A stretch of 64,000 bases of DNA from contig NW_026948140.1 in the NCBI RefSeq assembly GCF_963921235.1, positions 620,001 through 684,000 on the forward strand. The letters are read 5' to 3'. The notes under the pieces are model-generated. The model had not been told where the DNA came from, made no database searches, and saw only the letters and a program-made list of their open reading frames with translations. Shown in pieces: positions 1-19,875 of the stretch (position 1 is its first letter; each line of letters opens with the position of its first letter). This stretch comes from Mobula hypostoma. Its lineage: Eukaryota. The position numbers and the translations under genes were made by a program.

Positions 1-263
1 TCCCACTGCGGGAACTCCCTCTCGTGGACGGTGGCGGAACTCCCACTGCGCGTGTCTGCGCTGGGAGGACTAACTAGCTCCAGCGCCCTCTCGTGGACGG
101 TGCCGGAACTCCCACTGCGGGAACTCCCTCTCGTGGACGGTGCCGGAACTCCCACTGCACGTGCTGTTCTCAGGACCTGTTGGTCTGAGACAGTCCCGCA
201 GCACAATTACCGGACTCAAGTTCGTTTTACTCGTCGCCGATGGACGGGGTGCAGCCTGAGCGG
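1..263 (-). mobile_element. PLE copy 0, 5' (ORF1-repeat) end only; continues beyond the window edge
   Basis: Matches the ORF1 repeat region of the other copies (gtggacggtgccggaactcccact; ggtctgagacagtcccgcagcaca). It stops about 135 bp short of where the other copies end and abuts ttaggggttagg at 264. Confidence 0.85.
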
Positions 264-1456
264 TTAGGGGTTAGGATGCGAGTATGCGGGCAGTAGGCAA
301 AATATCCCTCTAGTGTTTGTGGATCTCGTACTGGAGATGCAGTATCACTTTACCCTGCCACTTTGTTTTTTGCCCACGTCATTATCATCTCGGTCCCCAA
401 CTTTCCTTTACTGGGATCTTCCTCCTCTTCAACCTCCATTCTGGAATTTAAGTTACAATAGTGGAGTTATTGTCTATGGATAGTGTTTTGTATTTTGGGT
501 CTCCTTTATAGGGACTGTGTGCTGTGATCTGGGGGTTGTGCGGTAGCTAATTGAGGGGTGTTGTGGGGAGGGACATGCCCGGGGGTAGAGTTAGGTAATG
601 GGGGTTGAGGATTCACGGCGAAGGGAGGTGGGGTGGGGTGGCAATTGGCATTGCGGGGATGGGTGTGTCCCCTGCAGTAGCCGGGAGGGCTGAAATGGGA
701 GCCTAGCTACTGTTGATATTGGGCGAGTTTGGCCCCTTGATGGGGTAAGGGCTTGGGTTTATGGGGGTGTGTAGCAGGGTTGGAGATATTAGGTTTAGGG
801 GTAGGGTAATGCACTGTTATATAAGCCCTTTAGTGTGGTGTGGTTTGGGTTCTTTGGGGTGCTGTCCGGTTTAGTTGGGTTGCGCGATCCCTTGGAAATT
901 AGGGTTATGGTTTAGTTGGGGTGTGTGGTCCTCCGGATGTTAGGATTAGGTTGAGGGGGTTAGGGTTGAGGGGGGCCCGCTGGGCGGCGGGAGGTATAAC
1001 TGGTGATGTGGGGTGAGTTTGCCCCTCTGGCGAGAAGAGGTTTTGTGTTTATGGGGTGTGAAGATGTTAGGTTTCAGGGCAGGGTCATGTGCTGGGGATG
1101 TATTCTTCCACATAGGGGAAGCTGGGAAGTTGGGGCAAGTGCTGTGTCTGGATTAAACCGGTCGTTACGCGTCTGTTCTTCCTAGTGGTTAACTCCTGTA
1201 GCGTTCTAATTTCTAGTTTTACTCCTCTCTACTTGGGGAATTAGGTTCCGTTCTGGGGCCCAGTTGTTAGGCTCTATTTCCAAAGTAAGACGAACCTTTC
1301 CTATTTAATGGTCCCCTGTCTTAATTTGTTTCAGGGTGGGTGACTGAAGGGGATCTTCCCCTTGTTCCCTACTCTAATTTTCTCAATTTTTAAAAAAATT
1401 ACGGGGTGTAGTGTTGGCCCTTCGGTGAGTACATTTTATGTTGCTGGCCTGGTTTT

Positions 1457-3650
1457 TTAGGCCTCGTTTAGGCCGTTTGGGGAATGCGTCTGTCGTCTTT
1501 CAATCCATCTCCTCTCTGCTCTTTTTCTTTGGAGGTTTGACCAGTTTATGTTGGTTTCCAGGCCCAGGATTGCTAAGGAGTACATTCCATGCTCCAGGAA
1601 GTGCCTACTAACTGGTTTGTTTTGGTTTCCTCCTGTGATATTACTGAGGTGTCCTGTGAGTCTTGTTCTCAGGCTGTTGCCTGTCTCCCCTATGTATATG
1701 ATATGGCATTGTTTACACTGGATTGCATATACTACATTCTTTTGTTCGCAAGTTATCCTCTGCTCTATCTCAGCCCACTTCCCTGTAGCTCTGTTGCGTA
1801 TGCTTTTTGAAATTCTGATGTATATGCACGCCCTGCAGTTTCCCACCTCGCAGTTTGGCACTGTTCGTACTTTGGTACTGCTTGGTATGCCTTTTAAGTA
1901 TCTACGCCTTTTGAAGGCTGAAACTATGGTGTATTGTCCCAGTGTCCCCCCCCTTCCTCCTTTAGATTTTCAAAGTGTGTTTTGACTGTCTTGTGGATAT
2001 TCACTGCCATCCCACTGTCTCCTGTTATCAAGGGTAGTTTCTGTGTTGTGTTGTCCCGTGGTCGGGGATTTGTGATACTTTTTAAAAAGTCAGATTTGAT
2101 GTGTCTAAGTCTCCGTCTGCTGTAGCCCCTGTTTCTAAGTGCAGAGAAGAGGATAAGAGTGGCTTGGTGGAAGTCCTCTGCCCTGGTGCAAATGCGGTGA
2201 AACCGGGTCAGCTGTTCTTTGACAATGCCTCTAAAGGTGCGTTTAGGATAGTGGCTCCCTGTGTGTAGGAGGGTGTGCCTGTCTGTGGTTTTAAAGAATA
2301 CTTTGGTGGCTAGTTTCTGGCTGCCATTCTGGTGCTTGTTTAAATACCGTAGTGTCCAGGAATCAATTTTCTCCCTATCTGTTGCTGCCTTAACCTTGAT
2401 GGATGGATGGTGAGTGTTTAGGATTTGAATAAATTCCTCTAATTCTACCTCCGAGTGTGTCCACACTCCCCAGATATCATCCAGCTATCTATAGAGACAC
2501 ATGGGTTTCTTGGGGCACTTTGGATAAATAGTTTCCTCCCATTTTGCCATGTATATATTGGCAGAGGCTGGAGCAAGCTTCTTTCCCATCGCTGTGCCCT
2601 TGACTTGTAAGTAGAATTCATTATTGAATTCAAAGTCATTTTTAGTTAGACTGAGGTGAAGGAGTTCTATCAAGGCCTCTTCTGGTCTCTCTAGCTGAGG
2701 GTTCTCCCGAAGGATATCCCTCACTGCCTCTATACCCCTGTCCGTTTCTATATTGGTGTACAGGCTTTCAATGTCCATGGTGAAGAGTATGGCCTCAGGG
2801 GGCACTGACATGGAATTGACTATCCCGACAAAGTGGTACGTATCCTTGATGTAGCTGGAGTGTTTCTGCGATAGTGGGTTAAGGAAGGCATGAATGTATT
2901 CTGCTATCCTGTATGACTCACTGCCGCAGTCCGACACGATGGGCCTGCCGGGTGGTATTTCTCCCGGAACAGTCCATGAGTCTGGGTTCTTGTGTATTTT
3001 GGGGAGGATATAGAACTTGCTTGCTCGTGCCTGTATCCCTGTCAGGTACTCCACCTGCTTCTTCCCGAGGTATCTAGTCCTTTCTAGTTCTTGCAGAATG
3101 TTCCTGATTTCTGTGTGTGTTTCCCAGTATATGGGTTCCTTTAGTTTAGTGTAGTGCTCCGTGTTGTTTAATTGCCTGTGTGCCTCAAATAGATATTGCT
3201 ATTTGTCCATGATCACTATGCTGCTGGTTTGATAACAATGTCCATATTTTCCCTCAACTCCTTCAGGGTTGCTCTCTCCTTCCTAGTTAGATTGGGTTTA
3301 TCCTGTACCTCTCTCTCCCTCTCCATTATCTCATCCAGTGTGCTCTCAAATTGTAGGACTGCTTCTGACCTGTACCTCCTCTTGGGCATCCAGTCTGAGG
3401 GTGGGGTGAAAGGGGTCTTTCTACGTTCTGTCTCCCCAAAAAAGTCAACCAGTACCACTCTCCTGTAGAACTTATCCATGTCCCCCTCAATCTGCTCCTT
3501 ATGCAGCTTTGCAGTCGGTACAAAAGTGAGGCCCCTGTTCAGAACCTTGTGCTGGGTTTCTGTAGGGATGAATGTATGGGAGAGGTTCACGACGGTCTCT
3601 CCCAGTCGTGGACCCTGCCTCTCTCGGCTTTGTCTCCACTCTAGTTTAAA
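1457..3650 (-). pseudogene. PLE ORF2: reverse transcriptase + GIY-YIG endonuclease (disrupted)
   Basis: PLE RT motifs VVNLS..GLTFVPT, FYILPKIHK, PGRPIVS, FTMDIESLYTNI, QVKGTAMG, R*LDDIWG. Linker CEVGNCRAC. GIY-YIG motifs NVVYAIQCKQC-YIGET-RLTGH and GLNE. In-frame TAG at 2485-2487 plus several frameshifts. Confidence 0.93.
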
Positions 3651-4805
3651 GACTGCATCCACCTCTTGACTATGGTCAGGGCTGTGTTCTCTGTCCAATT
3701 GATGTGGTCTGTGTCTGCCTTAAACTGCCTCGCCGGGATTGCAGGAATATAATTCTTAGTTTTAATAACCTTGTCTAGTTGGCCCAGGGTTGCTTGTTCT
3801 GCCTCTGTCAAACAGTGGCTAAAGTTCAGCTCTGGGAAATTTTATATGGGCCATTCTTAATAGTCGCTGAAGCTGTTTAGTCGCTGTTGCTGGTTGATGT
3901 GACCTATTGTTTATTCCAAAGGAAAGGATAGCCTTCTTAGTTTCCAGTTGTGGTTCTAGCTTTGTCAGGATAGCAGTGGCATGGGTGAATTTGGCTCACG
4001 GAAAGCTGTCCAATTGAACATCCTTATTAGGGAATCTTTTGATCCTGGAAATGTTAGAGTCCCCTATAATTAGTATAGGTTTAAGGGGCCTTAGTTCCCA
4101 AGTTACATTTTTCTGTTTAGAGTGAGGATGCCTGGTTATTTGACCCTCCTGGTTGCTGCAAATAGGGGTTACCTGTCATCTTGTTTGTCCCATGCCCTCC
4201 GAATCTTGGGCTGTGTGGTTCCCTGGAGTGGAAGACTTGCTCGGTCCTCGTGTACTGGCTCCCCTTGTGTGTGTGCCCATCTGCACTGGTGTGGGGTGGG
4301 GTGCTGATTCCTCAGAGTCTTGGGTCGGGGAGGCCATGGGAGCAGCGGGCTGGGGCTCCCCTGCTCCTAGGTTGGATTGCGGCTTCTCCGAGGGGCTCAC
4401 CTGGCGTCTTCTCTGTTCCTGTGGCTGGGGCACTGGGGCCATATCGGCGTCGAGTGGGTTAACTAGTTCCAGCGCCCTCCCGTGGACAGTGCCGGAACTC
4501 CCACTGTAAGTGTCGGCGCCGGGAGGACTAACTACCTCCACCGCCCTCCTGTGGACGGTGCCCGAACTCCCACTGCACGTATTGTTCTCGGGACCCGTTG
4601 GTCTGAGACAGTCCCGCAGCACAAATATCGGACTCAAGTTCGTTTTACTCGTCGCCGACGGACGGGGTGCAGCCTGAGCCGTCTTTTTCCGGGGCTCGGG
4701 TGTGATACGGGTCCGGTCACGGCTGACACATAAGCCGTCTCTGGAGGTGGAGTGTCTGTTCCCCTCTCCCCCTTGGGATGCGGTTTCCATTGTCCGTGGG
4801 GTCAT
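3641..4805 (-). pseudogene. PLE ORF1 copy 1: low-complexity N-terminus + SGNH/GDSL esterase-like domain (disrupted)
   Basis: Colinear with the better-preserved ORF1 at 14294-15542. ATG at 4805, premature stop at 4176, terminal TAG at 3641-3643. Confidence 0.8.
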
Positions 4806-5573
4806 TGTGACCGCATTAGGGTTAGGGTTGGGATGCGAGTATGCGGGTAGTGGGCAAAATATCCCTCTAGTGTTTTGTGGAGCTCGTACTGGATATGCAG
4901 TATCACTTTACCCTGCCACTTTGTGTTTGGCCCACGTCATCATCATCTGGGTCCCCAACTTTCCTTTACTGGGATCTTCCTCCTTTTCAACCTCCATTCT
5001 GTTACAATAGTGGAGTTATTGCCTATGGATAGTGTTTTGGATTTGTGGTCTTTTTTATAGGGACTGTGTGCTGTGAACTGGGGGTTGTGCGGTAGCTAAT
5101 TGAGGGGTGTTGTGGGGAGGAACATGCCCGGGGGTAGAGTTAGGTAATGGGGGTTGAGGATTCACGGCGAAGGGAGGTGGGGTGGGGTGGCAATTGGCAT
5201 TGCTGGGGTGGGGGTGTCCCCTGCAGTAGGGGGGAGGGCTGAAATAGGAGCCCAGCTGAGCTGGAGAGTTTCTGCGATAGTGGGTTAAGGATGGCATCCA
5301 TGTACTCTGCTATCCTGTATGACTCACTGCTGCAGTCCGACACGATGGGCCAGCCGGGTGGTATTTCTCCCGGAACGGTCCGTGAGTCTGGGCTCTTGTG
5401 TAGTTTGGGGAGGGTATAGAACTTTCTTACTCGTGGCCGTATCCTTGTCAGGTACTCCACTTGCTTCTTCCCGAGGTATCTAGTCCTCTCTAGTTCTCGC
5501 AAAATTTCCTAATCTGTGTGTGTGTTTCCCAGTATATAGGTTCCCTTAGTTTAATGTAGTGTTACGTGTTGTT

Positions 5574-5591
5574 TAATTGTCTGTGTGCCTC
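5574..5591 (+). repeat. L1 target-site duplication, left copy (right copy 9066-9083)
   Basis: taattgtctgtgtgcctc vs taattgtctgcgtgcctc, 17/18 identical. The sequence is single-copy in the uninterrupted paralogue at ~16325-16342. Confidence 0.9.
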
Positions 5592-8500
5592 TCCTATTCA
5601 AGAATTGATCATTTCTTTATTGATTCTCGTCTTATTTCTTCAGTGATTAAATGTGATTATGACTCTATAACCATTTCGGATCATGCTCCACTTAAGCTTT
5701 CTATTAAAATTCTGGTCAATATACAAAATAATAGACAATGGCATTTTAAATTAACTTTATGAATGAACAGATTGATTTTTTTTTACAATTAATTATACGG
5801 AGGATATTTCTGTGAACATTCTTTGAGATACTTATAGTGGCTTATATAGTGGCTTAAAAAGCTTATATTCGTGGTCAGATTATCTCGTATTCTGCTGCTT
5901 TGAGGAAGAAGTTGAAGCAGGAGGAGTTGGTAATTGTGGACAAGATTAAGGAAATTGATAAGAAATATGTTATAGCTCCTTCTGAGGGGTTATATAAACA
6001 AAGAACTGAACTTCAAATGGAACACAGTTTATTACTTTCGTCCTCGATCGTCCAATTAAAGAAAACAAGAAGTGAATTTTATGTACACAGTGACGAAATT
6101 GGTAAACTGTTGGCTAATCAACTGAAGTCTAATTATGCTAAATCTCAAATTAATCAGATTTATAATCAAAATGACCGACTGATACTTGATCATGTGGGGA
6201 TTAATCAAACCTTCTGTGATTTTTATTCTTCTTTATATCAATCAGAGTCTCCTCAAGATTCTAAATATATGAATGATTTTTTAGATAATCTAGATTTCCC
6301 TGAGATTTCGCAGGATATGTCTTCTATGTTAGATACTCCCATTACCACGGATGAGATTAAGAATGTTATTTTCTCTATGAATTTGGGGAAAGCTCCTGGC
6401 CCTGATGGGTTTACCGTAGAATTTTATAAATGTTTCGCTCCTTCATTAATCCCTTGGTTCTGTAGGGTTTTTGAGGCTTCATTAAAACTTGGTAAACTTC
6501 CTGAATATTTCAATAGAGCGTCAATTTCTTTAATAGTAAAGAAGGATAAAGATCCTGCTCAATGTGCATCTTATAGACCAATATCTTTATTAAATGTTGA
6601 TTCTACAGTTTTTTCTAAGTTATTAGCAAATAGGTTAGAAAAAGTACTTCCTTCTATTATTTCGGAAGACCAAACGGGTTTTATTAAAGGTCGTTACTCT
6701 TTTTATAATATTCGCACACTGTTAAATATTGTTTATACTCCCTCACAAAATGTTTCTGAGTGTGTTATCTCTTTAGATGCTGAGAAAGCTTTCGATAGAG
6801 TAGAATGGCCTTATTTATTAAGGTGCTTGAAATGTTTAATTTTAGTTCGAAATTTATATCCTGGATTAAACTGTTATATCATTCTCCTGTGGCCTCGGTC
6901 CGTACTAACTCTTTAAGTTCACCTTTTTTCCCTCTTTTTCGAGGTACTCGACAAGGTTGTCTTCTTAGTCCTCTATTATTTGATATTGCATTAGAACCTC
7001 TTGCAATTGCCATTCGAGAATCTCCAAATATTACTGGGATAACTCGGGGCTTAAAGTCCCATAAAATATCACTCTATGCTGATGACTTACTTCTATATAT
7101 TTCTAACCCCCAAAAATCCATCCCGGCTGTTTTAGAGTTATTAGCACAATTTAGTTTCTTTTCTGGTTATAAATTAAATCTTAGTAAGAGTGAACTTTTC
7201 CCGATTAATAAACAACTTCCCTTATATAATAACTTTCCATTTAAATTGACTAATAATTATTTTTCATATCTTGGGATTAAAATTACTTGTAAATACAAAG
7301 ATTTATTTAAGATTAACTGTTTACCATTAATAGACCATATTATTCAACTTTCATCTAAATGGTTTCCTTTATATTTAACTTTGATTGGTCGTATTAATGC
7401 AGTTAAGATGTTTTTTTTGCCAAAATTTTTATATATATTTCAAGCATTACCAATCTTTGTTCCAAAATCTTTTTTTGACAAAGTTGACTCTAAAATTTCT
7501 TCATTTATTTGGCAAAATAAAAACCCGAGACTGGGTAAAATACATTTACAGAAAGCTAAGAGAGATGGAGGCTTAGCATTACCTAATTTTAGATTTTATT
7601 ATTGGGCAATTAATATTCGACATATGAAATTCTGGTTACTTGACCAGGATGTTCAGGGTTATACACTTGGCTCTATTTTAGGTTCCTCTCTTCCTTTTGA
7701 TTTGAAACGCCTTAAACAGGTGTCTAACCCGATAGTTAAATATACCTTACGTATTTGGTTTCAATTCAGAAAGTTTTTTGATCTTAATCAATTTGGGTTA
7801 GCGATTCCTATTTTAGGTAACATTTTTTCCTCCCTCTTTTACGGATCGTGCTTTTCAAATTTGGAAGACTAAGGGTATTTCACGGTTTTTGGATTTATTT
7901 TTAGATGGTTCCCTTATGTCTTTTGAACAATTATCTAATAAATATAACTTATCAAGAATACATTTTTTTAGATATCTACAAGTTAGAAATTTCCTAAGTA
8001 CTATACTTTCTTCCTTTCCAATGCTTCCTCCTACATACATTTTAGATACTATAATTAACCTTAATCCATGTCAGAAAGGTGCATCGGCTATGATTTATAG
8101 TATTATTATGAAATTTAGGAAAGCTCCATTTGATAAGATTAGGGTAGATTGGGAACAGGAATTGGGGTTTATCATTTCTGTGGATGACTGGGGGCAGATT
8201 TTACAATTAGTCAATACTTCCTCTATCTGTGCTAAACATTCCCTAATTCAGTTTAAAGTTGTTCATAGAGCACATATGTCCAAAGATAAATTAGCGCGCT
8301 TTTATTCTCATATTAATCCTTTTTGTGATAGATGTCCGGGCCAGATAGCCTCTTTAACTCATGTGTTTTGGTCTTGCCCTACTCTGGAAACTTTTTGGAG
8401 AGACATTTTTAATATTATCTCCAAGGTATTGAATATAGATATCTCTCCTCACCCTATTACTGTTATCTTTGGACTACCTAAAATTTCCAGTAATCTTTCC

Positions 8501-8716
8501 CCTTCAGCCCATAGAATGATTGCATTTCTTACTTTAATGGCGAAAAGATGTATCTTACAACATTGGAAAGAGCTTAATGCTCCATCTACCTTTTTTTGGT
8601 TTTCTCAGACGATATTATGCTTGAATTTGGAGAAAATTAGAAGCAATCTTTATGACTCCTCATTTAAATTTGAACAGACCTGGAGATCTTTTATTCAATA
8701 TTTTCATTTAATGTAA
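5592..8716 (+). pseudogene. L1 ORF2 (APE endonuclease C-terminus, RT, C-terminal Cys/His motif), frameshifted
   Basis: SRIDHFF..SDHAPL (APE); KAPGPDGF, YRPISLLN, DQTGFIKGR, SLDAEKAFDRV, GTRQGCLLSP, LYADD (RT); CDRC..THVFWSC. Split over at least four frames. Confidence 0.93.
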
Positions 8717-9065
8717 TATATACCCTTCTTGTTTTTTTTACTGTTTTTTATGGAGGTCGGGATTGAGGACGTGATTTTAAGTTTTTTAACTCTGTTTGGT
8801 TTCAAGTTAGCCCATTGCTTTGCTTTGCTTTTAGTTAGTTGCACGGTGGGTTTTTTTTGGGGTTTTTGTTTTCCTTTTCTCTATTGATATATATATAAAA
8901 ATTCGTATACTATTATGTTACCTTGGTATGTTATGTTTAAATTACATTGTAGTATTTTTTTTGTATTAATATCTTCTGTAATTTTATTATATTCTAACAG
9001 TGTATTAGTGCCTATATGGCTTACCTTTTTGTATACTTATTCAATAAAAAGATTTAAAAAGAAAG
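5592..9065 (+). mobile_element. 5'-truncated L1-clade LINE
   Basis: AT-rich block with ORF2 motifs, a T-rich 3' UTR, AATAAA at 9043-9048, a short A-rich tail and flanking target-site duplication. Confidence 0.93.
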
Positions 9066-10669
9066 TAATTGTCTGCGTGCCTCAAATAGGTATTGCTGTT
9101 TGTCCATGATAACTATGCTGCTCCCGTTATCTGCTAGTTTGATAACAATATCCATATTTTCTCTCAGTTCTTTCAGGGCTGCTCTCTCCTTCCTGGTTAG
9201 ATTGGGTTTATCCTGTGCTTCTCTGTCCCTCTCTATTATCTCATCCATTGTGTTCTCAAATTGCAAGACCGCTTCTGACCTGTACCTCCTCTTGGGCATC
9301 CAGTCTGAGGGAGGGGTGAAAGAAGTCTTCCTACATTCTGACTCCCCCAAAAAGTCGACCAGTACCAATCTCCTATAGAACTTATCCATGTCCCCCTCCA
9401 TCTGCTCCTTATGGAGCTTTGCAGTCGGTACAAAAGTGAGGCCCCTGTTCGGAACATTGTGCTGGGTTTCTGTAGGGATGAATGTACGAGAGAGGTTCAC
9501 GATGGTCTCTCCCAGTCGTGGACCCTGCCTCTCTCGGCTTTGTCTCCACTCTAGTTTAAAGACTGCATCCACCTCTTTACTATGGTCAGGGCTGTGTTCT
9601 CTGTCCAATGGATGTGGTCTGTGTCTACCTTAAACTGCCTCGCCGGGAATGCAGGGATATAATTCTTAGTTCTAATAACCTCGTTCAGTTGGCCCAGGGT
9701 TGCTTGTTCTGCCTCTGTCAAACAGTGGCTAAAGTTCAGCTCTGGGAAATTTTATATGGGCCATTCTTAATAATTGCTGAAGCTGTTTATTCGCTATTGC
9801 TAGTTGATGTGACCTATTGTTTATTCCAAAGGAAAGGATAAACTTCTTAGTTTCCAGTTGTGGTTCTAACTTTGTCAGGATAGCAGGGGCATGGGTGAAT
9901 TTGGCTCACTGAAAGCTGTCCAATTGAACATCCTCATTAGGGCATCTTTTGATCCTGGAAATGTTAGAGTCACCTATAATTAGTATGGGTTTAAGGGTCC
10001 TTAGTTTCCAAGTTACATTTTTCTGTTTAGAGTGAGGATGCCTGGTTATTTGATCCTCCTGGTTGCTGCAAATAGGGGTTACCTGTCGTTTGTCCCATGT
10101 CCTCCGACTCTCGGGCTGTGTGGTTCCCTGGGGTGGAAGACTTGCTCGGTCCTCGTGTACTGGCTGCCCTTGTCTGTGTGCCCATCCGCATTGGTGTGGG
10201 TTGGGGTGCTGATTCCTCGGAGTCTTGGGTCGGGGAGGCCATGGGGGCGGCGGGCTGAGGCTCCCCTGCTCCTAGGTTGGACTGTGTCTTCTCCGAGGGG
10301 CTCATGGGTGGGGAGGGGCTCACCTGGCGCCTTCTCTGTTCCTCTGCCTGGGGCAGTGGGGCCACATCGGCGTTGAGTGGGGTAACTACTTCCAGCGCCC
10401 TCTCGTTGACGGTGCCGGAACTCCCACTACACGTGTTGTTCTCAGGACCTGTTGGTCTGAGACAGTCCCGCAGCACAATTACCGGACTCAAGTTCGCTTT
10501 ACTCGTCGCCGACGGACGGGGTGCAGCCTAAGCGGTCTTTTTCCGGGGCTCGGGTGTGATACGGGTCCGGTCACGGCTGACACAGAAGCCGTCTCTGGAG
10601 GTGGAGTGTCTGTTCCCCTCTCCCCCTTGGGATGCGGTTTCCATTGTCCGTGGGGTCATTGTGACCGCA

Positions 10670-11307
10670 TTAGGGTTAGGGTTAGGATGCGAGTATGCGG
10701 GTAGTGGGCAAAATATCCCTCTGGTGTTTGTGGATCTCGTACTGGAGATGCAGTATCACTCTACCCTGCCACTTTGTGTTTGGCCCACGTCATCATCATC
10801 TCGGTCCCCAACTTTCCTTTACTGGCATCTTCCTCCCCTTCAAACTCCATTCTGGAGTTTAAGTTACAATAGTGGAGATATTGGCTATGGATAGTGTTTT
10901 GGATTTGGGGGCTTTTTAATAGGGACTGTGTGCTGTGATCTGCGGGTTGTGCGGTAGCTAATTGAGGGGTGTTGTGGGGAGGGACATGCCCTGGAGTAGA
11001 GTTAGGTAATGGGGGTTGAGGATTCACGGCGAAGGGAGGTGGGGTGGGGTGGCAATTGGCATTGCAGGGGTGGGGGTGTGCCTTGCAGTAGTGGGGAGGG
11101 CTAAAATAGGAGCCTAGTTGCTGGTGATATTGGGCAAATTTGGCCCCTTGATGGGGTAATGGTTTGGGTTTTGGGGTGTGTAGCAGGGTTGGAGATGTTA
11201 GGTTTAGGGGTAGGGTAAAGGACTGTTATATAAGCCCTTTAGTGTGGTGTGGTTTGGGTTATTTGGGGTGCTGTCCAGTTTAGTTGGGGTGCGCGGTCCA
11301 TTGGAAA
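10670..11307 (-). mobile_element. PLE 3'-terminal fragment (pseudo-LTR-like), ~640 bp
   Basis: Colinear with 264-898 and ends at the UTR-internal ggaaa|ttaggg site. Confidence 0.8.
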
Positions 11308-11341
11308 TTAGGGTTAGGGTTAGGGTCGGGCTGGGGTTAGG
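11308..11341 (+). repeat. Telomere-like tract (TTAGGG)3 plus variants at a unit boundary (others at 264, 4816, 10670, 15553, 18061, 18688, 19551)
   Basis: ttagggttagggttagggtcgggctggggttagg read directly. Confidence 0.85.
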
Positions 11342-12092
11342 ATGCGAGTATGCGGGCAGTGGGAATTTGGCCCCTTACTGGGGTAAAGGTTTGGGTTTAT
11401 GGGGGTGTGTAGCAGGGTTGGAGGTGTTAGGTTTAGTGGTAGGGCAAAGGATTATTATATAAGCCCTTTAGTGTGGTGTGGTTTAGGTTATTTGGGATGC
11501 TGTCCAGTTCAGTTGGGGTGCGCGGTCCCTTGGAAATTAGGGTGAGGGTTTAGTTGGGGTGTGTGGTCCTCCGGATGTTAGGATTAGGTTGTGGGCATAG
11601 GGTTGAGGGGGGCCCGCCGGGCGGCGGGAGGTATAACTGGTGATGTGGGGTGAGTTTGCCCCTCTGGTGAGAAGAGGATCTGTGTTTATGGGGTGTGAAG
11701 ATGTTACATTTCAGGGCATGGTCATGTGCTGGGGATGTATTCTTCCCCATGGGGGAAGCTGGGAAGTTGGGGCAAGTGCTGTGTCTGGATTAAACTGGTC
11801 GTTACGTGTCTGTTCTTCCTAGTGGTTATCTCCTGTAGTGTTATAATTTCTAGTTTTACTCCTCTCTACTTGGGGAATTATGTTCTGTTATGGGGCCTAG
11901 TTGTTAGGCTCTATTTCCAAAGTAAGACGAACCTTTCCTATTTAATGGTCCCCTGTCTTAATTTGTTTCAGGGTGGGTGACTGAAGGGGATCTTCCCCTT
12001 CTTCCCTACTCTAATTTTCTCAATTTTTTTAACATTACGGTTTGCAGGGTTGGTCCTTCGGTGAGTACATTTTATGTTGCTGGCCTGGTTTT

Positions 12093-14303
12093 TTAGGCCT
12101 CGTTTAGGCCGTTAGGGGAATGCCTCTGCAGTCTTTCAATCCATCTCCTCTCTGCTCTTTTTCTTTGGATGTTTGACCAGTTTATGTTGGTTTCCAGGCC
12201 CAGGATTGCTTAGGAGTACATTCCATGCTCCAGGAAGTGCCTACTAACTGGTCTGTTTTGGTTTCTTTTTGTGATATTACTGAGGTGTCCTGTGAGTCTG
12301 GTTCTCAGGCTGTTGCCTGTCTCCCCTATGTATATGATATGGCATTGTTTACACTGGATTGCATATATTACATTCTTTTGTTCGCAAGTTATCCTCTGCT
12401 CTATCTCAGCCCACTTCCCTGTAGCTCTGTTGCGTATGCTTTTTGAAATTCTGATGTATATGCACGCCCTGCAATTTCCCACCTCGCAGTTTGGCGCTGT
12501 TCGTACTTTGGTACTGACTAGTATGTCTTTTATGTTTCTACCCCTTTTGAAGGCTGAAACTATGGTGTATTGTCCCAGTGTCCCCCCCTTCCTCCTTTAG
12601 ATTTTCAAAGTGTGTTTTGACTGTCTTGTGGATATTCACTGCCATCCCACTGTATCCTGTTATCAAGGGTAGTTTCTGTGTTGTGTTGTCCCGTGGTCGG
12701 GGATTTGTGATACTTTTTAAAAAGTCAGATTTGATGTGTCTGAGTCTCCATCTGCTGTAGCCCCTGTGTCTAAGTGCAGAGAAGAGGATAGTAGTGGCTT
12801 GGTGGAAGTCCTCTGCCCTGGTGCAAATGTGATGAAACCGGATCAGCTGTCCTTTGACAATGCCTCCGAAGGTGTGTTTGGGATGGTGGCTCCCGGTGTG
12901 TAGGAGGGTGTGTGTGTGTCTGTGGTTTTAAAGAATCGTTTGGTGGCTAGTTTCTGGCTTCCATTTTCTGGTGCTTGTTTAAATACCGTAGTGTCCAGGA
13001 AGTCAATTTTCTCCCTATTTGTTGTGGCCTTAACCTTAATGGATGGATGATGAGTGTTTAGGATTTGAATAAATTCCTCTAATTCTACCTCTGAGTGTGT
13101 CCACACTCCCCAAATGTCATCCAGCTATCTATAGAGACACATGGGTTTCTTGGGGCACTTTGGATAAACAGTTTCCTCCCATTTTGCCATGTATATATTG
13201 GCAGAGGCTGGAGCAAGCTTCTTTCCCATCGCTGTGCTCTTGACTTGTAAGTAGAATTCATTATTGAATTCAAAGTCATTTTTAGTTAGGCTGAGGTGAA
13301 GGAGTTCTATCAAGGCCTCGTCTGGTCTCTCTAGCTGAGGGTTCTCCCGAAGGATATCCCTCGCTGCCTCTATACCCCTGTCCGTTTCTATATTGGTGTA
13401 CAGGCTTTCAATGCCCATGGTGAAGAGTATGGCCTCAGGGGGCACTGACATGGAATTGACTATCCGGACAAAGTGGTACGTGTCCTTGACATAACTGGAG
13501 TGTTTCTGCGATAGTGGGTTAAGGAAGGCATGAATGTATTCTGCTATCCTGTATGACTCACTGCCGCAGTCTGACACGATGGGCCTGCCGGGTGGTATTT
13601 CTCCTGGAACAGTCCATGAGTCTGGGTTCTTGTGTATTTTGGGGAAAATATAGAACTTTCTTGCTCGTGGCTGTATCTCTGTCAGGTACTCCACCTGCTT
13701 CTTCCCGAGGTATCTAGTCCTTTCTAGTTCTCGCAGAATGTTCCTGATTTCTGTGTGTGTTTCCCAGTATATGGGTTCCTTTAGTTTAGTGTAGTGCTCC
13801 GCATTGTTTAATTGCCTGTGTGCCTCAAATAGATATTGCTGTTTGTCCATGATCACTATGCTGCTCCCTTTATCTGCTGGTTTGATAACAATATCCATAT
13901 TTTCCCTCAACTTCTTCAGGGCTGCTCTGTCCTTCCTAGTTAGATTGGGTTTATCCTGTACCTGTCTCTCCCTCTCCATTATCTCATCCAGTGTGCTCTC
14001 AAATGGCAGGACCGCTTCTGACCTGTACCTCCTCTTGAGCATCCAGTCTGAGGCTGGGGTGAAAGGGGTCTTTCTACGTACTGTCTCCCCAAAAAAGTCA
14101 ACGAGTACCACTCTCCTGTAGAACTTATCCATGTCCCCCTCAATCTGCTCCTTCTGGAGTTTTGCAGTCGGTACAAAAGTGAGGCCCCTGTTCGGAACCT
14201 TGTGCCGGGTTTCTGTGGGGATGAATGTACGAGAGAGGTTCACGACGGTCTCTCCCAGTCGTGGACCCTGCCTCTCTCGGCTTTGTCTCCACTCTAGTTT
14301 AAA
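12093..14303 (-). pseudogene. PLE ORF2 copy 3: RT + GIY-YIG (disrupted)
   Basis: Open from the ORF1 junction to a TAG in the catalytic motif (13125-13127). Further frameshifts follow and there is a stop at 12210. Same motifs as copy 1. Confidence 0.93.
14297..14303 (-). promoter_or_regulatory. Candidate -1 ribosomal frameshift heptamer U_UUA_AAC (also 3644-3650, 9554-9560, 16809-16815)
   Basis: ORF1 frame reads TCT TTA AAC TAG; the -1 frame TTT AAA CTA GAG is the RT frame. Identical in four copies. Confidence 0.75.
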
Positions 14304-15114
14304 GACTGCATCCACCTCTTGACTATGGTCAAGGCTGTATTTTCTCTCCAATGGATGTGGTCTGTGTCTACCTTAAACTGCCTCGCCGGGATTGCAGGGA
14401 TATAATTCTTAGTTTTAATAACCTCATTTAGTTGGCCCAGGGTTGCTTGTTCTGCCTCTGTCAAACAGTGGCTAAAGTTCAGCTCTGGGAAATTTTATAT
14501 GGGTCATTCTTAATAGTTGCTGAAGCTGTTTAGTCGCTGTTGCTGGTTGATGTGACCTATTGTTTATTCCAAAGGAAAGGATAACCTTCTTAGTTTCCAG
14601 TTGTGGTTCTAACTTTGTCAGGATAGCAGTGGGATGGGTGAATTTGGCTCGCGGAAAGCTGTCCAATTGAACATCCTTATTAGGGAATCTTTTGATCCTG
14701 GAAATGTTAGAGTCCCCTATAATTAGTATAGGTTTAAGGGGCCTTAGTTCCCAAGTTACATTTTTCTGTTTAGAGTGAGGATGCCTGGTTATTTGACCCT
14801 CCCGGTTGCTGCAAATAGGGGTTACCTGTCGTCTTGTTTGTCCCATGTCCTCCGACTCTCGGGCTGCGTGGTTCCCTAGGGTGGAAGACTTGCTCGGTCC
14901 ACGTGTACTGGCATCCCTAGTGTGTGTGCCCATCCGCACTGGCGTGGGGTGGGGTGCTGATTCCTCGGAGTCTTGGGTCGGGGAGGCCATGGGAACGGCG
15001 GGCTGGGGCTCCCCTACTCCCAGGTTGGATTGCGTCTTCTCCAAGAGGCTCATGGGTGGGGAGGGGCTCGCCTGGCGTCTTCTCTGTTCCTGTGGCTGGG
15101 GCACTGGGGCTACA

Positions 15115-15322
15115 TCGGCGTCGAGTGGGTTAACTAGTTCCAGCGCCCTCCCGTGGACGGTGCCGGAACTCCCACTGTAAGTGTCGGTGCTGGGAAGACT
15201 AATTAGCTGCTTCGCCCTCTCGTGGACGGTTGCTGAACTCCCACTGCAGGTGTGGGCGCTGGGAGGACTACCTACCTCCAGCGCCCTCCCGTGGACGGTG
15301 CCAGAACTCCCACTACACGTGT
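15115..15322 (-). repeat. 69-bp (23-aa) coding tandem repeat in ORF1, 3 units
   Basis: TCSGSSGTVHGRALEVGSPPSAH / TCSGSSATVHERAKQLISLPSTD / TYSGSSGTVHGRALELVNPLDAD. Boundaries approximate. Confidence 0.85.
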
Positions 15323-15552
15323 TCTCAGGACCTTTTGGTCTGAGACAGTCCCGCAGCACAATTACCGGACTCAAGTTCGTTTTACTCGTCGCCGACGGAC
15401 GGGGTGCAGCTTGAGCGGTCTTTTTCCGGGGCTCGGGTGTGATACGGGTCCGATCACGGTTGACCCAGAAGCCTTCCCTGGAGGTGGAGGGTCTGTTCCC
15501 CTCTCCCCCTTGGGATGCGGTTTCCATTGTCCGTGCGGTCATTGTGGCCGCA

Positions 15553-18060
15553 TTAGGGTGAGGGTTAGCGTTAGGATGCGAGTATGCGGGCAGTGGGCAA
15601 AATATCCCTCCAGTGTTTGTGGATCTCGTACTGGAGATGCAGTATCACTTTACCCTGCCACTCTGTGTTTGGCCCACGTCATCATCATCTCGGTCCCCAA
15701 CTTTCCTTTACTGGGATCTTTCTCCTCTTCAACCTCCAGTCTGGAGTTTAAGATACAATTGTGGAATTATTGCCTATGGTTAATGTTTTGGATTTGGGGC
15801 CTTTTTAATAGGGACTGGGTGCTGTGATCTGGGGTTTGTGCGGTAGCTAATTGAGGGGTGTTGTGGGGAGGGGCATGCCCGGGGGTATAGTTAGGTAATG
15901 GAGGTTGAGGATTCACGGCGAAGGGAGGTGGGGTCGGGTGGCAATTGGCATTTCGGGGGTGGGGGTGTCCCCTGCAGTAGGGGGAGGGCTGAAATAGGAG
16001 CCTAGCTGAGCTGGAGTGTTTCTGCAATAGTGGGTTAAGGATGGCATCCATGTACTCTGCTATCCTGTATGACTCACTGCTGCAGTACGACACGATGGGC
16101 CAGCCGGGTGGTATTTCTCAAGGAACGGTCCGTGAGTCTGGGCTCTTGTGTATTTTGGGGAGGGTATAGAACTTTCTTACTCGTGGCTGTATCCCTGTCA
16201 GGTACTCCACTTGCTTCTTCCCGAGGTATCTAGTCCTCTCTAGTTCTCGCAAAATGTTCCTAATCTGTGTGTGTGTTTCCCAGTATATGGGTTCCCTTCG
16301 TTTAATGTAGTGTTCCGTGTTGTTTAATTGTCTGTGTGCCTCAAATAGGTATTGCTGTTTGTCCATGATAACTATGCTGCTCCGGTTATCTGCTGGTTTG
16401 ATAACAACATCCATATTTTCCCTCAGTTCTTTCAGGGCTGCTCTCTCCTTCCTGGTTAGATTGGGTTTATCCTGTATTTTTCTCTCCTTCTCTATTATCT
16501 CATCCAGTGTGCTCTCAAATTGTAAGACCGCTTCTGACCTGTACCTTCTCTTGGGCATCCAGTCTGAGGGAGGGGTGAAAGGGGTCTTGCTAAATTCTGA
16601 CTCCCCAAAAAAGTCGACCAGTACCAATCTCCAAGAGAATTTATGTCCCCCTCCGTCTGCTCCTTCTGGAGCTTTGCAGTTGGTACAAAAGTGAGGCCCC
16701 TGTTCGGAACCTTGTGCCGGGTTTATGTGGGGATGAATGTACGAGAGAGGTTCACGACGGTCTCTCCCAGTCGTGGACCCTGCCTCTCTCGGCTTTGTCT
16801 CCACTCTAGTTTAAAGACTGCATCCACCTCTTGACTATGGTCAAGGCTGTATTTTCTCTCCAATGGATGTGGTCTGTGTCTGCCTTAAACTGCCTCGCCG
16901 GAATTGCGGGGATATAATTCTTAGTTCTAATAACCTCGTTTAGTTGGCCCAGGGTTGCTTGTTCTGCCTCTGTCAAACAGTGGCTAAAGTTCAGCTCTGG
17001 GAAATTTTATATGGGCCATTCTTAATAGTTGCTGAAGCTGTTTAGTCGCTGTTGCTGGTTGATGTGACCTATTGTTTATTCCAAAGGAAAGGATAACCTT
17101 CTTAGTTTCCAGTTGTGGTTCTAACTTTGTCAGGATAGCAGTAGCATGGGTGAATTTGGCTCCCGGAAAGCTGTCCAATTGAACATCCTTATTAGGGCAT
17201 CTTTTGATCCTGGAAATGTTAGAGTCCCCTATAATTAGTATAGGTTTAAGGGGCCTTAGTTCCCAAGTTACATTTTTCTGTTTTGAGTGAGGATACCTGG
17301 TTATTTGACCCTCCCGGTTGCTGCAAATAGGGGTTACCTGTCGTCTTGTTTGTCCCATGTCCTCCGACTCTCGGGCTGTGTGGTTCCCTGGGGTGGAAGA
17401 CTTGCTCGGTCCTCGTGTACTGGCTCCCCTTGTCTGTGTGCCCATCCGCACTGGTATGGGGTCGGGTGCTGATTCCTCGGAGTCTTGGGTCGGGGAAGCC
17501 ATGGGGGCGGCGGGCGAGGGCTCCCCTGCTCCTAAGTTGTATTGCAGCTTCTCCGAGGGGCTCATGGGTGCGGAGGGGCTCACCTGGCGTCTTCTCTGAT
17601 CCTGTGCCTGGGGCAGTGGGGCCACATCGGCGTCGAGTGGGGTAACTAGCTCCAGCGCCCTCCCGTGGACGGTGCCGGAACTCCCACTGTAAGTGTCGGC
17701 GCTGTGAGGACTAACTAGCTCCCTCGCCCTCTCGTGGACGGTTGCGGAACTCCCACTGCAGCTGTAGCCGCTGGGAGGACTCCAGCGCCCTCCCGTGGAC
17801 GGTGCCTGAACTCCCACTACACGTGTTGTTCTCAGGACCTGTTGGTCTGAGACAGTCCCGCAGCACAATTACCGGACGCAAGTTCGTTTTACTCGTCGCC
17901 GACGGACGGGGTGCAGCTTGAGCGGTCTTTTTCCCTGGGCTTGGGTGTGATACGGGTACCGTCACGTTTGACTCAGAAGCTGTCCCTGGAGGTGGAGGGT
18001 CTGTTCCCCTCTCCCCCTTGGGATGCGGTTTCCATTGTCCGTGGGGTCATTGTGGCCGCA
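15553..18060 (-). mobile_element. PLE copy 4, internally deleted derivative without L1
   Basis: Same deletion junction as copy 2 (cctagctgagctggagtg, ~16001-16018). Esterase-like motifs IGDSN, DSFPGA and FGINN lie in 16984-17868. Confidence 0.88.
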
Positions 18061-18687
18061 TTAGGGTTCGGGTTAGGATGCGAGTATGCGGGCAGTGGGC
18101 AAAATATCCCTCTAGTGTTTGTGGATCTCGTACTGGGGATGCACTGCCACTTTGTTTTTGGCCCACGTCATCATCATCTCGGACCCCAACTTTCCTTTAC
18201 TGGGATCTTCCTCCTCTTCAACCTCCAGTCTGGAGTTTAAATTACAATAGTGGAGTGATTGCCGATGGAGAGTGTTTTGTATTTGGGGCCTTTTTAATAG
18301 GGACTGTATGCTGTGATCTGGGGGTTGTGCGGTAGCTAATTGAGGGGTGTTGTGGGGAGGGACATGCCCGAGGGTATAGTTAGGTAATGGGGGTTGAGGA
18401 TTCACGGCGAAGGGAGGTGGGGTGGGGTGGAAATTGGCATAGCGGGGGTGGGGGTGTGCCCTGCAGTAGGGGGGCAGGCTGAAATAGGAGCCTAGTTGCT
18501 GGTGATATTGGGCGAATTTGGCCCCTTGATGGGGTAAGGGCTTGGGTTTATGGGGGTGTGTAGCAGGGTTGGAAATGTTAGGTTTAGGGGTAGGGTAAAG
18601 GCCTGTTATTTAAGCCCTTTAGTGTGGTGTGGTTTGGGTTATTTGGGGTGCTGTCCGGTTTAGTTGGGGTGCGCGGTCCATTGGAAA
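18061..18687 (-). mobile_element. PLE 3'-terminal fragment (pseudo-LTR-like), ~630 bp
   Basis: Colinear with 10670-11307 and ends at the same ggaaa|tta site. Confidence 0.8.
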
Positions 18688-19550
18688 TTAAGGTTAGGTT
18701 GAGAGTATGCGGGCAGTGAGCAAATCAGCCCTCTTGTGCTATTTGATCTCCTCACTTGAGATTCAATTTCACGCGACCCTGCCACTTTGACCTCGCCCAC
18801 GCCTTCATTAACCAGGTCCAACAATTGCCTTTCTCGGATCTTGCCCCTCCTGGCAAAGGTAATCGGGTTTGTGGGGGTGTGGCTAGGGTTAGTCGGGGTG
18901 TGCCTAGGGATTGTGGGGGTGTGGCATGATCATCGGGATGTACCTAGGGTTTGTGGGGGTGTGTGCCCCCTTGGACTTTAGGATTAGGTTTGAGTGTTGG
19001 GCTGGTGGATGTATATGTGTGACTGGGAGAGATAAGGCTGCAGAGTTTGGAGTGGTGAGGTATGAGGTGCTATGGCGCGTAGGCTTGTGTGGTGAAGCCA
19101 GGTGAATCTGGCCCATGCCTTTCGTTATCGTGGTCTGACACCACTTGGTTCAATGAACCGGGTGTGCACTGGGACACATCATCAGTAATGCATCCTCGGA
19201 TCATGGGGTGTTTCGGGTCTTTAATCATTAGACACCCTCCCCGAGGCGACCCAGCTGGAGTTGATCAAGCTCGGCTTGTGATTTCCCATGTACCAGGATA
19301 ATGAGAGGCATGTAACTATGAGGGTAATGATGTTTTTAAACATCATTACCTGGCATCTGTCTGCCTGGGATTGCATGGGTTAAATTGACAGTGTTTAATG
19401 GGCATTCGGTGTCTCTCCATCTGCGTTTAGTGGTGATTTGCTTCTGTGGACCCAGCTTGTGTTTAACTTTCTGGTTCTCTCTCGCCGTTTGGGCATCTGG
19501 GCATTTTTCTTGGCATTTTGTCTACCGGGAGAATGAAGAGCGTGTCACTG
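18688..19550 (-). mobile_element. 3'-terminal fragment of a second, diverged PLE subfamily (V1)
   Basis: Starts ttaaggttaggttgagagtatgcgggcagt. The first ~130 bp are homologous to the terminal module of the main family (gatctc..gagat, accctgccactttg), then it diverges. Confidence 0.65.
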
Positions 19551-19875
19551 TTAGGTTAGGTTGAGAGTATGCGGGCAGTGGGCAAATCAGCCCTCTTGTG
19601 CTTTTTGATCTCCTCACTTGAGATTCAATTTCACGCAACCCTGCCACTTTGATCTGGCCTACACCTTCATTAACCAGGTCCAACACTTGCCTTTCTTGGA
19701 TCTTGCCCCTCCTGACAAAGGTAATCGGGTTTGTGGGGGTGTGGCCAGGGTTTGTCCGGGTGTGCCTAATGTTTGTGGGGGTATGGCATGATAATCGGGA
19801 TGTCCCGAGGGTTTGTGGGGGTGTGTGCCCCCTTGGACTTTAGGATTAGGTTTGAGTGTTGGGCTGGTGGATGTG
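19551..19875 (-). mobile_element. Shorter second-subfamily fragment (V2), direct repeat of 18688-~19020
   Basis: Colinear with V1 and cut off at atgtgtga|aactcc by the satellite. Confidence 0.7.

Follow-up and report, generated by a model that had tools for sequence, protein, structure and literature searches.

Telomere-repeat tracts at the unit boundaries of a decayed, endonuclease-bearing Penelope-like element array, and in its relatives, suggest repeat-guided priming

The window, i.e. the whole 64-kb stretch of DNA analysed, contains a Neptune-type Penelope-like element (PLE) in a decayed head-to-tail array on the minus strand, with a TTAGGG-like tract at every unit boundary. This element (family A) comprises a reverse transcriptase (RT), a CX4CX2C linker, and a GIY-YIG endonuclease (EN); family B is an 862-bp non-coding derivative. 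The tract probably served as an internal start site: a CCCUAA stretch in the A RNA would pair with a DNA 3' end terminating in TTAGG(G) and prime reverse transcription. The evidence falls short of a telomere-elongating system. Telomerase and the RTs of PLEs are sister groups. The PLEs reported to pair with telomeric repeats lack an endonuclease and occur in rotifers, fungi, plants, and protists, whereas EN+ PLEs have been described as inserting genome-wide. To our knowledge, a start by telomere-repeat pairing has been described only for Penelope elements without an endonuclease. The features of the array are listed in Table 1.

Table 1. Features of the PLE array and its surroundings (positions within the window).
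Feature	Position	Strand	Remark
U1, full-length family A, 4.55 kb	264-4815	-	5' ORF1 region, ORF2, 1.2-kb 3' UTR
U1 tract and motif	264-289	-	GGT joint to the previous A unit, ~140 nt in from its 5' end; primed insertion or deletion
Internal GGAAA/TTAGGGT site in intact 3' UTR	894-907	+	9-nt telomere-repeat match; the other best match is 11 nt at 957
U1 ORF2 (RT-linker-GIY-YIG)	about 3545 to 1457	-	interrupted by stop codons and frameshifts
GIY-YIG region of U1	1457-1969	-	PF01541, E 1.1e-7
U2, A unit with internal deletion, split by LINE	4816-10669	-	equivalent of about 709-2852 missing
Tract and motif	4816-4846	-	head-to-tail junction (ccgca)
L1-like LINE (RT, zf-RVT)	5592-9054	+	later insertion; ~18-nt target duplication on both sides
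U3+U4, A unit of subfamily with internal second terminus	10670-15552	-	
Tract and motif	10670-10700	-	head-to-tail junction (ccgca)
Six-unit tract and 55-nt terminus	11308-11362	-	at internal ggaaa/TTAGGG site; inherited subfamily structure
U3+U4 ORF2	about 14189-12099	-	broken
Esterase-like C-terminal part of ORF1 in U3+U4	14472-14810	-	
U5, A unit	15553-18060	-	internal deletion as in U2
Tract and motif	15553-15589	-	head-to-tail junction (ccgca)
U6, 3'-terminal 627 bp of A	18061-18687	-	ended at internal ggaaa site
U6 tract and motif	18061-18091	-	ccgca
B1, 862-bp non-autonomous unit	18688-19550	-	terminal ~160 nt common with A (76-80%)
B1 TTAGG-type tract and motif	18688-18712	-	junction at the internal TTAGGG of A
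B2, partial tandem copy of B	19551-19874	-	pLTR-like
B2 tract and motif	19551-19574	-	B's own head-to-tail junction (cactg)
14-bp satellite (CCCTGAA and 7 variable nt)	19896-64000		C-rich on +; adjoins the array, separate from it

Matches to RVT_1 (E = 1.8e-4, weaker than the cut-off of Pfam) and GIY-YIG (E = 1.1e-7) lie in collinear broken frames, and tblastn with the intact relative P0019 covered residues 2-703 in the window. A CX2-5CxxC linker between RT and EN reads CEVGNCRAC in U1 and U4. Two Cys residues are located between GIY and YIG (YAIQCKQCHIIYIG) and His residues follow downstream, forming a CCHH motif. The A units are arranged head to tail and B1 is joined to B2, which corresponds to a tandem/partial-tandem pLTR layout; the B joint (19550->18689) was found in three of four sequencing runs, including X11, which is an RNA run by guess only and whose contigs do not reveal RNA ends. 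The RT tree comprised homologs and related loci only. The nearest protein is 80% identical and stems from the stingray Hypanus sabinus. Many further protein relatives are 43-54% identical, and all named ones are from bony fish; viral contigs contributed 0 loci. Both ORF2-bearing copies have a stop at the YLDD position. No hammerhead was among the nine Rfam rows at E<=5 for positions 1-20000, and core-motif scans of the termini, which a divergent variant could escape, found nothing with a plausible stem II.

An earlier note on this DNA had described eight modules of one polarity, each with two to four TTAGGG-like units, a right side constant apart from a deletion after ~11362, and one of four left flanks, and had taken the tract to mark a terminus. 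All eight modules were recovered, with each tract beginning where it had been placed. GAGTATGCGG occurs in eight exact copies on the plus strand (280, 4837, 10691, 11346, 15580, 18082, 18703, 19565) and in none on the minus strand, in agreement with the uniform polarity, and each copy follows a TTAGG(G)-like tract. All eight 3' termini thus carry a reverse-complement telomeric tract, several of them degenerate. The unit counts held less well: perfect TTAGGG units number 0-3 per tract, those at 18688 and 19551 have TTAGG pentamers instead, and the one at 11308 consists of six hexamer-like units. The right sides are not constant and form two families, A and B. The five A termini are 94-96% alike across 150 nt, whereas the two B termini are just 76-80% like A. 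All four flanks are present as named, but they are element sequence and not separate genomic sites. The ccgca flank (four cases) is the 5' end of the adjoining A unit and the cactg flank is the end of B itself. The ggaaa flank (two cases) is a site within the 3' UTR of A, where intact copies (899, 11537) already carry GGAAATTAGGGT, and the gagcgg flank lies inward from A's 5' end. Five of the eight modules are ordinary head-to-tail junctions, two occupy a TTAGGG that already existed in the 3' UTR of A, and the one at 264 shows a 3-nt GGT microhomology. The view of the tract as a unit terminus is borne out at every boundary.

The window contains at most three non-tandem junction events. Two of the three, one A-type and one B-type, share the same internal ggaaa/TTAGGG site, which ranks among the two best matches to the telomere repeat across the 4526 nt of the A unit. 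The structure at 11308 lies within a 185-bp duplication (11137-11321 / 11364-11550) and is also present in sequencing runs X5 and X11; it is therefore an inherited subfamily feature. U6 is 96% identical to U3 in the duplicated part and apparently belongs to the same subfamily, so that B may have joined an already lengthened tract. Because of this kinship, the three non-tandem junctions are not independent. The junction at 264 is compatible with a microhomology deletion, and the array has other deletions.

The support for repeat-guided priming comes mainly from relatives. Sense CTAACCCTAA was found in 21 of 57 locus clusters and the antisense sequence in none; shuffles gave a mean of 0.72 and a maximum of 3 in 50. 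The telomeric hexamer occurred in 24 clusters versus at most seven for each of nine other hexamers of equal composition. In some loci (L007, L050, L060, L063), the tracts in the whole-locus count precede the ORF or lie within it, and a 3'-only count was therefore used. In the 1.4 kb that follow the ORF, sense CTAACCCTAA is present in 14 of 47 families and the antisense sequence in none (shuffles: mean 0.14, maximum 2 in 200), which leaves 33 relatives lacking the 10-mer there; this count omitted 10 clusters with less than 200 nt after the ORF and scored as negative L031 and L033, for which another ORF or member had been picked. The 10-mer follows the ORF in 9 of 24 families with a detected EN and in 5 of 23 without. 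Families with no detected EN thus have the tract as well; several of them (L037, L043, L047) are circular and therefore probably whole units. The tract is scattered over the RT tree with at least 14 changes, a count taken with no shuffled control. At two loci, L031 and L053, one element breaks off at a point where it resembles CCCTA(A) itself; next come about ten units of CCCTAA and, in the same polarity, a 5'-truncated element of a different family.

The earlier note had further proposed that a G-strand 3' end pairs with an RNA ending in CCUAACCCUAA, regarded as the telomerase-template sequence, and primes cDNA synthesis. Priming by such pairing is still the best explanation of the strand-specific tract and of the Athena-like chains in relatives, but the start is likely internal. 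Since the tract is internal to tandem head-to-tail units, an RNA ending in CCUAACCCUAA is unsupported. The same applies to the telomerase-template reading, because any complement of TTAGGG reads so; the nine Rfam rows at E<=5 (1-20000) contained no telomerase RNA match. An origin of the tract in telomerase RNA was rejected.

We infer that transcripts cross tandem units, which would place the tract inside the RNA. GIY-YIG would then nick DNA of the TTAGGG type, be it a telomeric repeat, an interstitial one, or the TTAGGG of a sister copy; alternatively, a free G-rich end would be used. In either case, the 3'-OH would pair with CCCUAA and be extended. A cDNA ending in TTAGG would re-prime on another RNA, so that units would pile up head to tail in one polarity and each seam would contain the tract. 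Both B and a high-depth short family, in which the tract and the terminal ~140-160 nt are kept, would be copied in trans; the non-coding B retains terminus and tract.

One alternative, which we consider unlikely although it deserves weight, is that an ancestor entered a TTAGGG repeat by a microsatellite preference of its endonuclease without RNA-DNA pairing. Repeats captured at the pLTR/body junction would have been copied since, and the other junctions would be deletions or crossovers at short G-rich homologies. The plain tandem junctions, the inherited structure, the degenerate tracts, and the other microhomology-type deletions in the array all agree with such a relic, and the stop shared by both ORF2-bearing copies fits DNA-level duplication. 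Moreover, the microsatellite bias of Neptune elements is ascribed to the CX2-5CxxC linker in PMC8557442. However, a relic of this kind sits poorly with the tract in families that have no detected EN, with its strict sense orientation, with its retention in non-coding derivatives, and with the breaks of L031 and L053 at repeat-like sequence.

Clearly less probable still is an Athena- or HeT-A-like scenario in which RNAs ending in CCUAACCCUAA were added to true chromosome ends, the window being a present or former subtelomeric array. It would account for the single polarity of the modules and for the absence of the far-side part of the target unit beside the array at 11308 and 18688; L031 and L053 also match what PMC6431247 describes for Terminons, where telomeric repeats cap 5'-truncated copies. 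Yet no long TTAGGG array exists in the 64-kb window or among the 18 of 733 loose ends that were listed, and the place where the chromosome end would be expected is taken by the 44-kb satellite, whose strand bias (2542 CCCTGAA copies and no TTCAGGG on the plus strand) is opposite to that of the array tracts. An element encoding an endonuclease has no need of a free DNA end. In tandem units the tract lies in the interior, the putative RNA run X11 contains the B joint, and, unlike in Terminons, no hammerhead was detected beside the tract.

Internal priming at the tract can be compared with known systems. As characterized in PMC8557442, the Neptune clade of EN+ PLEs (Arkhipova 2006, per Craig et al. 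2021) shares with family A the order of RT and C-terminal GIY-YIG, the CX2-5CxxC linker, two Cys inside GIY-YIG, the tandem/partial-tandem pLTR layout, and a simple-repeat bias. In contrast, the simple repeat is here the host telomere repeat and lies inside the element at each seam, no minimal hammerhead was found, and an upstream ORF has an esterase-like domain. The EN-deficient Athena, Coprina, and Terminon elements, as presented in PMC8557442 and PMC6431247, likewise terminate 3' in a short reverse-complement telomeric tract, form polar head-to-tail chains, and carry a GDSL-type esterase as accessory ORF; the array differs in its fused GIY-YIG, its vertebrate host, and the lack of a hammerhead next to the tract. 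A terminus combining ribozyme and telomeric tract is described in PMC6431247 as restricted to telomere-associated PLEs. According to Frangieh et al. 2024 (PMC11167929), the Poseidon element PAc of the green anole begins reverse transcription within a multi-unit RNA; the AC-rich start site lies 111-118 nt past the beginning of the next ORF and is not homologous to the AT-rich cut DNA. PAc is also able to cut its own pLTR and insert there. Its start without homology to the cut DNA counts against tract pairing. PAc differs from the array, in which the breakpoints coincide with the tract, immediately ahead of the next ORF, and the tract is matched by two non-tandem targets. SART1/TRAS and Tx1-1_ACar (PMC7265360, PMC10088271), the latter the sole vertebrate example listed, are also endonuclease-bearing retroelements inserting in telomeric repeats, but they are LINEs and SART1 relies on its poly(A) tail. 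Animal non-LTR retrozymes, as outlined in bioRxiv 10.64898/2026.07.22.740005, resemble B and the high-depth short family in being non-autonomous tandem PLE-terminus units; no hammerhead was detected in the A or B termini.

If repeat-guided priming is correct, an EN+ vertebrate family whose many relatives bear the same strand-specific tract, EN+ or not, would show that such priming can coexist with endonuclease use, and the endonuclease may thereby become dispensable in Neptune lineages. The finding that sturgeon PLEs are bounded by TTAGGG arrays speaks for this priming and would be accounted for by it; section 3.4 of PMC12031113 identifies them as GIY-YIG PLEs, not by clade. The published anole in vitro system opens this priming to a direct test.

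The termini of L008, L009, L018, and L066 consist of (GT)n, (TGTA)n, or (TC)n, and repeat-ended termini are therefore a group trait. In three of these four, the repeat comes just after a common GCC(C/A)GTGC-type motif, which is present in 26 of 47 relatives (shuffles: mean 6, maximum 12 in 100). The 3' UTR of the window has no strict match to it; by eye only, TGCCCACTGC/TGCCCGCAT resemble the motif. More tentatively, Neptune-type PLEs might pick their target by base pairing in general, a repeat tract past the conserved 3' motif setting the primer repeat in the manner of a telomerase template (CCCTAA in the array and many relatives; GT, TGTA, or TC elsewhere). The window would then represent a vertebrate EN+ telomere-repeat-primed PLE linking Athena-like to dispersed Penelope elements, with an RT that could be retargeted by a few RNA letters.

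Some results count against priming at the tract. A structure exposing the tract was not significant in any of 10 folds (z -1.17 to +1.24), and a double change was seen in 2 of 33 pairs. A hairpin presenting the tract, with CGCAU/AUGCG arms on either side of it at ccgca junctions, was rejected as unsupported; the minimum-energy folds paired otherwise, with z near zero. Among the 18 of 733 loose ends listed, the one with the most support at the terminus of A is a run of TTCGAY-like hexamers and not of TTAGGG. This end was found in 24 contigs in X1 and in seven in X5, the two DNA runs with coverage.

The eight modules counted in the earlier note, each a tract followed by a constant motif, were borne out: a motif search of the window yielded GAGTATGCGG eight times on the plus strand and never on the minus strand, and a TTAGG(G)-like tract directly precedes every copy (starting at 264, 4816, 10670, 11308, 15553, 18061, 18688 and 19551). 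Calling these tracts TTAGGG-like is correct in a loose sense, but the number of perfect TTAGGG units is 0 to 3 per tract, and those at 18688 and 19551 consist of TTAGG pentamers. Likewise, the claimed constancy of the right side holds within family A (94-96% mutual identity of five termini over 150 nt), but not for the two termini of the non-coding family B, which are 76-80% alike to A; the terminus at 11308 is a short case apart from these seven. A self-comparison of the window gave the following unit map.

Units of the array and the adjoining satellite
Feature	Position	Assignment	Remarks
U1	264-4815	family A	
U2	4816-10669	family A	2.1-kb deletion and L1-like insertion
U3+U4	10670-15552	family A	
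U5	15553-18060	family A	deletion identical to that of U2
U6	18061-18687	family A	
B1	18688-19550	family B	
B2	19551-19874	family B	
14-bp satellite	19896-64000 (window end)		adjoins array

Copies of family A share 92-95% identity. The insertion in U2 (5592-9054) is an AT-rich, L1-like, 5'-truncated LINE in opposite orientation to U2, with a target duplication of about 18 nt. The satellite (44 kb) has a 14-bp period based on CCCTGAA, a sequence that differs by one letter from the plant-type telomere repeat; it contains one interruption of more than 45 nt (near 36740) and runs on beyond the window end. It is C-rich on the plus strand (2542 CCCTGAA versus 0 TTCAGGG), a strand bias opposite to that of the array.

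A broken minus-strand reading frame matched the domains RVT_1 (E 1.8e-4) and GIY-YIG (E 1.1e-7); it contains a CEVGNCRAC linker and two Cys within the GIY-YIG core, which passages of PMC8557442 and PMC3846280 describe as marks of Neptune-type Penelope-like elements (PLEs). Judged by these four sequence features, the element is of this type. Among the matches listed, the closest protein belongs to the stingray Hypanus sabinus (80% identity over 53% of the query); the remaining listed relatives show 43-54% identity, the named ones being from bony fish. In both copies bearing ORF2, the RT and GIY-YIG frame, which are about 94% alike, the Tyr position of YLDD is a stop codon (2485-2487 and 13122-13124, minus strand). 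The window copies are therefore inactive, and the shared stop implies that an already inactive template spread in trans or by DNA duplication. The upstream ORF1 ends C-terminally in an esterase-like domain with a weak Pfam match (Lipase_GDSL_2, E 0.06-0.12), but tblastn matched this domain in 23 of the 78 related loci. ORF1 also contains two to three copies of a 69-bp repeat; the tract at ccgca junctions continues its frame and would encode Pro-Asn repeats before the first ATG (region 14472-15644, minus strand).

The four left flanks reported earlier are present at the modules, but all of them are element sequence. The ccgca flank (four cases) belongs to the neighbouring A unit, whose 5' end it forms. 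The cactg flank is B's own end, and the joint of 19550 to 18689 was present in the DNA sequencing runs X1 and X5 and in X11, a run guessed to be RNA. The ggaaa flank is a site within the 3' UTR of A, where uninterrupted copies read GGAAATTAGGGT; its 9-nt telomere-repeat match is among the two best over 4526 nt. A six-unit tract plus 55 nt of terminus occupies this site at 11308, inside a 185-bp duplication. The structure recurs in X11 and in X5, where its depth is 361.8 (A's 5' region: 179-598), and is therefore old and inherited. Family B is attached to the identical site at 18688. The gagcgg flank, some 140 nt inward from the 5' end of A, has GGT in common with the tract; the junction at 264 fits a primed insertion or a deletion. 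The window thus holds at most three non-tandem events, two of them at pre-existing TTAGGG. U6 and U3 are 96% identical in the duplicated part, and U6 seems to belong to a subfamily already carrying the longer tract.

Related loci were sought in metagenome contigs, of which 39 of 64 parts were scanned; the best 80 of 124 relatives gave 78 loci in 57 clusters, many being circular contigs, as tandem arrays assemble. CTAACCCTAA occurred on the sense strand in 21 of the 57 clusters and on the antisense strand in none (50 dinucleotide shuffles: mean 0.72, maximum 3). The telomeric hexamer was found in 24 clusters, versus at most 7 for the others among ten hexamers of equal composition. Because some tracts lie upstream of or inside ORFs, the count was repeated for the 1.4 kb after the ORF in 47 clusters, leaving out 10 without 200 nt there: 14 contained CTAACCCTAA, none in antisense (200 shuffles: mean 0.14, maximum 2), namely 9 of the 24 clusters in which an endonuclease was detected and 5 of the other 23. 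A quick-search RT tree of 68 rows places the window beside the stingray protein in a 22-row clade (support 98) with four tract-positive among seven loci; the tract also occurs on distant branches, corresponding to at least 14 changes. Some relatives instead have (GT)n, (TGTA)n or (TC)n at their ends. In two loci (L031, L053) the element stops where its own sequence, as read from uninterrupted copies, is CCCTAA or TCCTA; about ten CCCTAA units follow, and after them, in the same polarity, a different family continues with a 5'-truncated element. These joins could be assembly errors through this 60-nt repeat. A GCC(C/A)GTGC-type motif follows the ORF in 26 of 47 clusters (shuffle mean 6). In the 3' regions of L007, L010, L014, L031, L032, L034 and L052, GCC(C/A)G(T/C)GC is often present in two copies separated by about 30-50 nt, and an AC-rich or CCCTAA tract lies between them; the spacing is reminiscent of the PLE 'tail', the 30-40 nt that separate two RT start sites. 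Eight circular Neptune-like loci (L028, L029, L033, L034, L037, L043, L047, L049) had no detected GIY-YIG domain; they are probably whole units and may form a group of Neptune derivatives without an endonuclease.

The human telomerase template reads CUAACCCUAAC. The likeness to it pointed out in the earlier note exists, but follows from complementarity to TTAGGG alone; no telomerase RNA match was found in the array region. Folding around the tract gave no significant structure, and the element termini of the window yielded no hammerhead match. A canonical-looking hammerhead core (CTGAAGA...GAAA) lies near a unit junction of the related locus L001 (about 5020-5070); the window's families differ.

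We consider it somewhat probable that a 3'-OH ending in TTAGG(G), whether generated by the endonuclease or left free at a break or end, would pair with CCCUAA in the element RNA and be extended, and that TTAGG-ended cDNAs would re-prime on further RNAs, building polar stacks. According to passages of PMC11167929, reverse transcription of the anole Poseidon element starts inside multi-unit RNA at an AC-rich site, and the element can cut its own partial-tandem repeat (pLTR), target homology not being required. An internal start site would be common to both, that of the window element being complementary to TTAGGG. In endonuclease-deficient Athena/Terminon elements, a reverse-complement telomeric tract beside a hammerhead attaches to G-rich overhangs, and polar chains with telomeric-repeat caps are formed (parts of PMC8557442 and PMC6431247). 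The tract complementary to TTAGGG is shared with these, whereas the window element encodes an endonuclease and no hammerhead was found. It looks like a combination of both types, its start site lying inside the RNA and being complementary to TTAGGG as well. Less probable, though possible, is that a single microsatellite-type insertion left the tract behind as a frozen relic and that deletions came later. True chromosome-end addition from RNAs ending in the tract is the least supported reading and quite improbable: the 64-kb window contains no telomere array, and the satellite to the right has the opposite strand bias.

Our literature searches turned up no endonuclease-bearing PLE described as ending in a telomeric tract; passages of PMC4209133, PMC12602865, PMC2678813, PMC3124438 and bioRxiv 10.64898/2026.07.22.740005 do not mention one. 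In passages of PMC10088271 the LINE Tx1-1_ACar is the sole vertebrate entry, and PMC7265360 deals with SART1. For lake sturgeon, sections of PMC12031113 report that GIY-YIG PLEs lie between arrays of TTAGGG where herpesviruses have integrated, at several such sites, although PLE insertion is termed random by the authors.

Among 18 of 733 loose ends listed for the sequencing runs, none had a long TTAGGG flank. On the left of the A motif, the best-supported of these ends consists of consecutive TTCGAY-like hexamers (24 contigs in X1 and 7 in X5); in another, CGCA and two TTAGGG units meet the terminus at a point about 120 nt into it. The TTCGAY-like ends, the missing telomere array and the opposite satellite bias count against a simple telomere-repeat reading. 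Summed depth in X1, which is no copy number, was 76,690-102,464 over the terminal 115 nt versus 239-707 upstream. We infer that the A terminus gave rise to a short tandem family of high depth, in which the tract has grown and diverged. It comprises A's terminal 120-140 nt or so (18062-18182; X1, X5), two TTAGGG units and TTCGAY-like hexamers, and is probably a satellite or a retrozyme-like unit without hammerhead. The depth of B is about 10-fold greater in X5 than in X1; for the short family, the reverse was observed.
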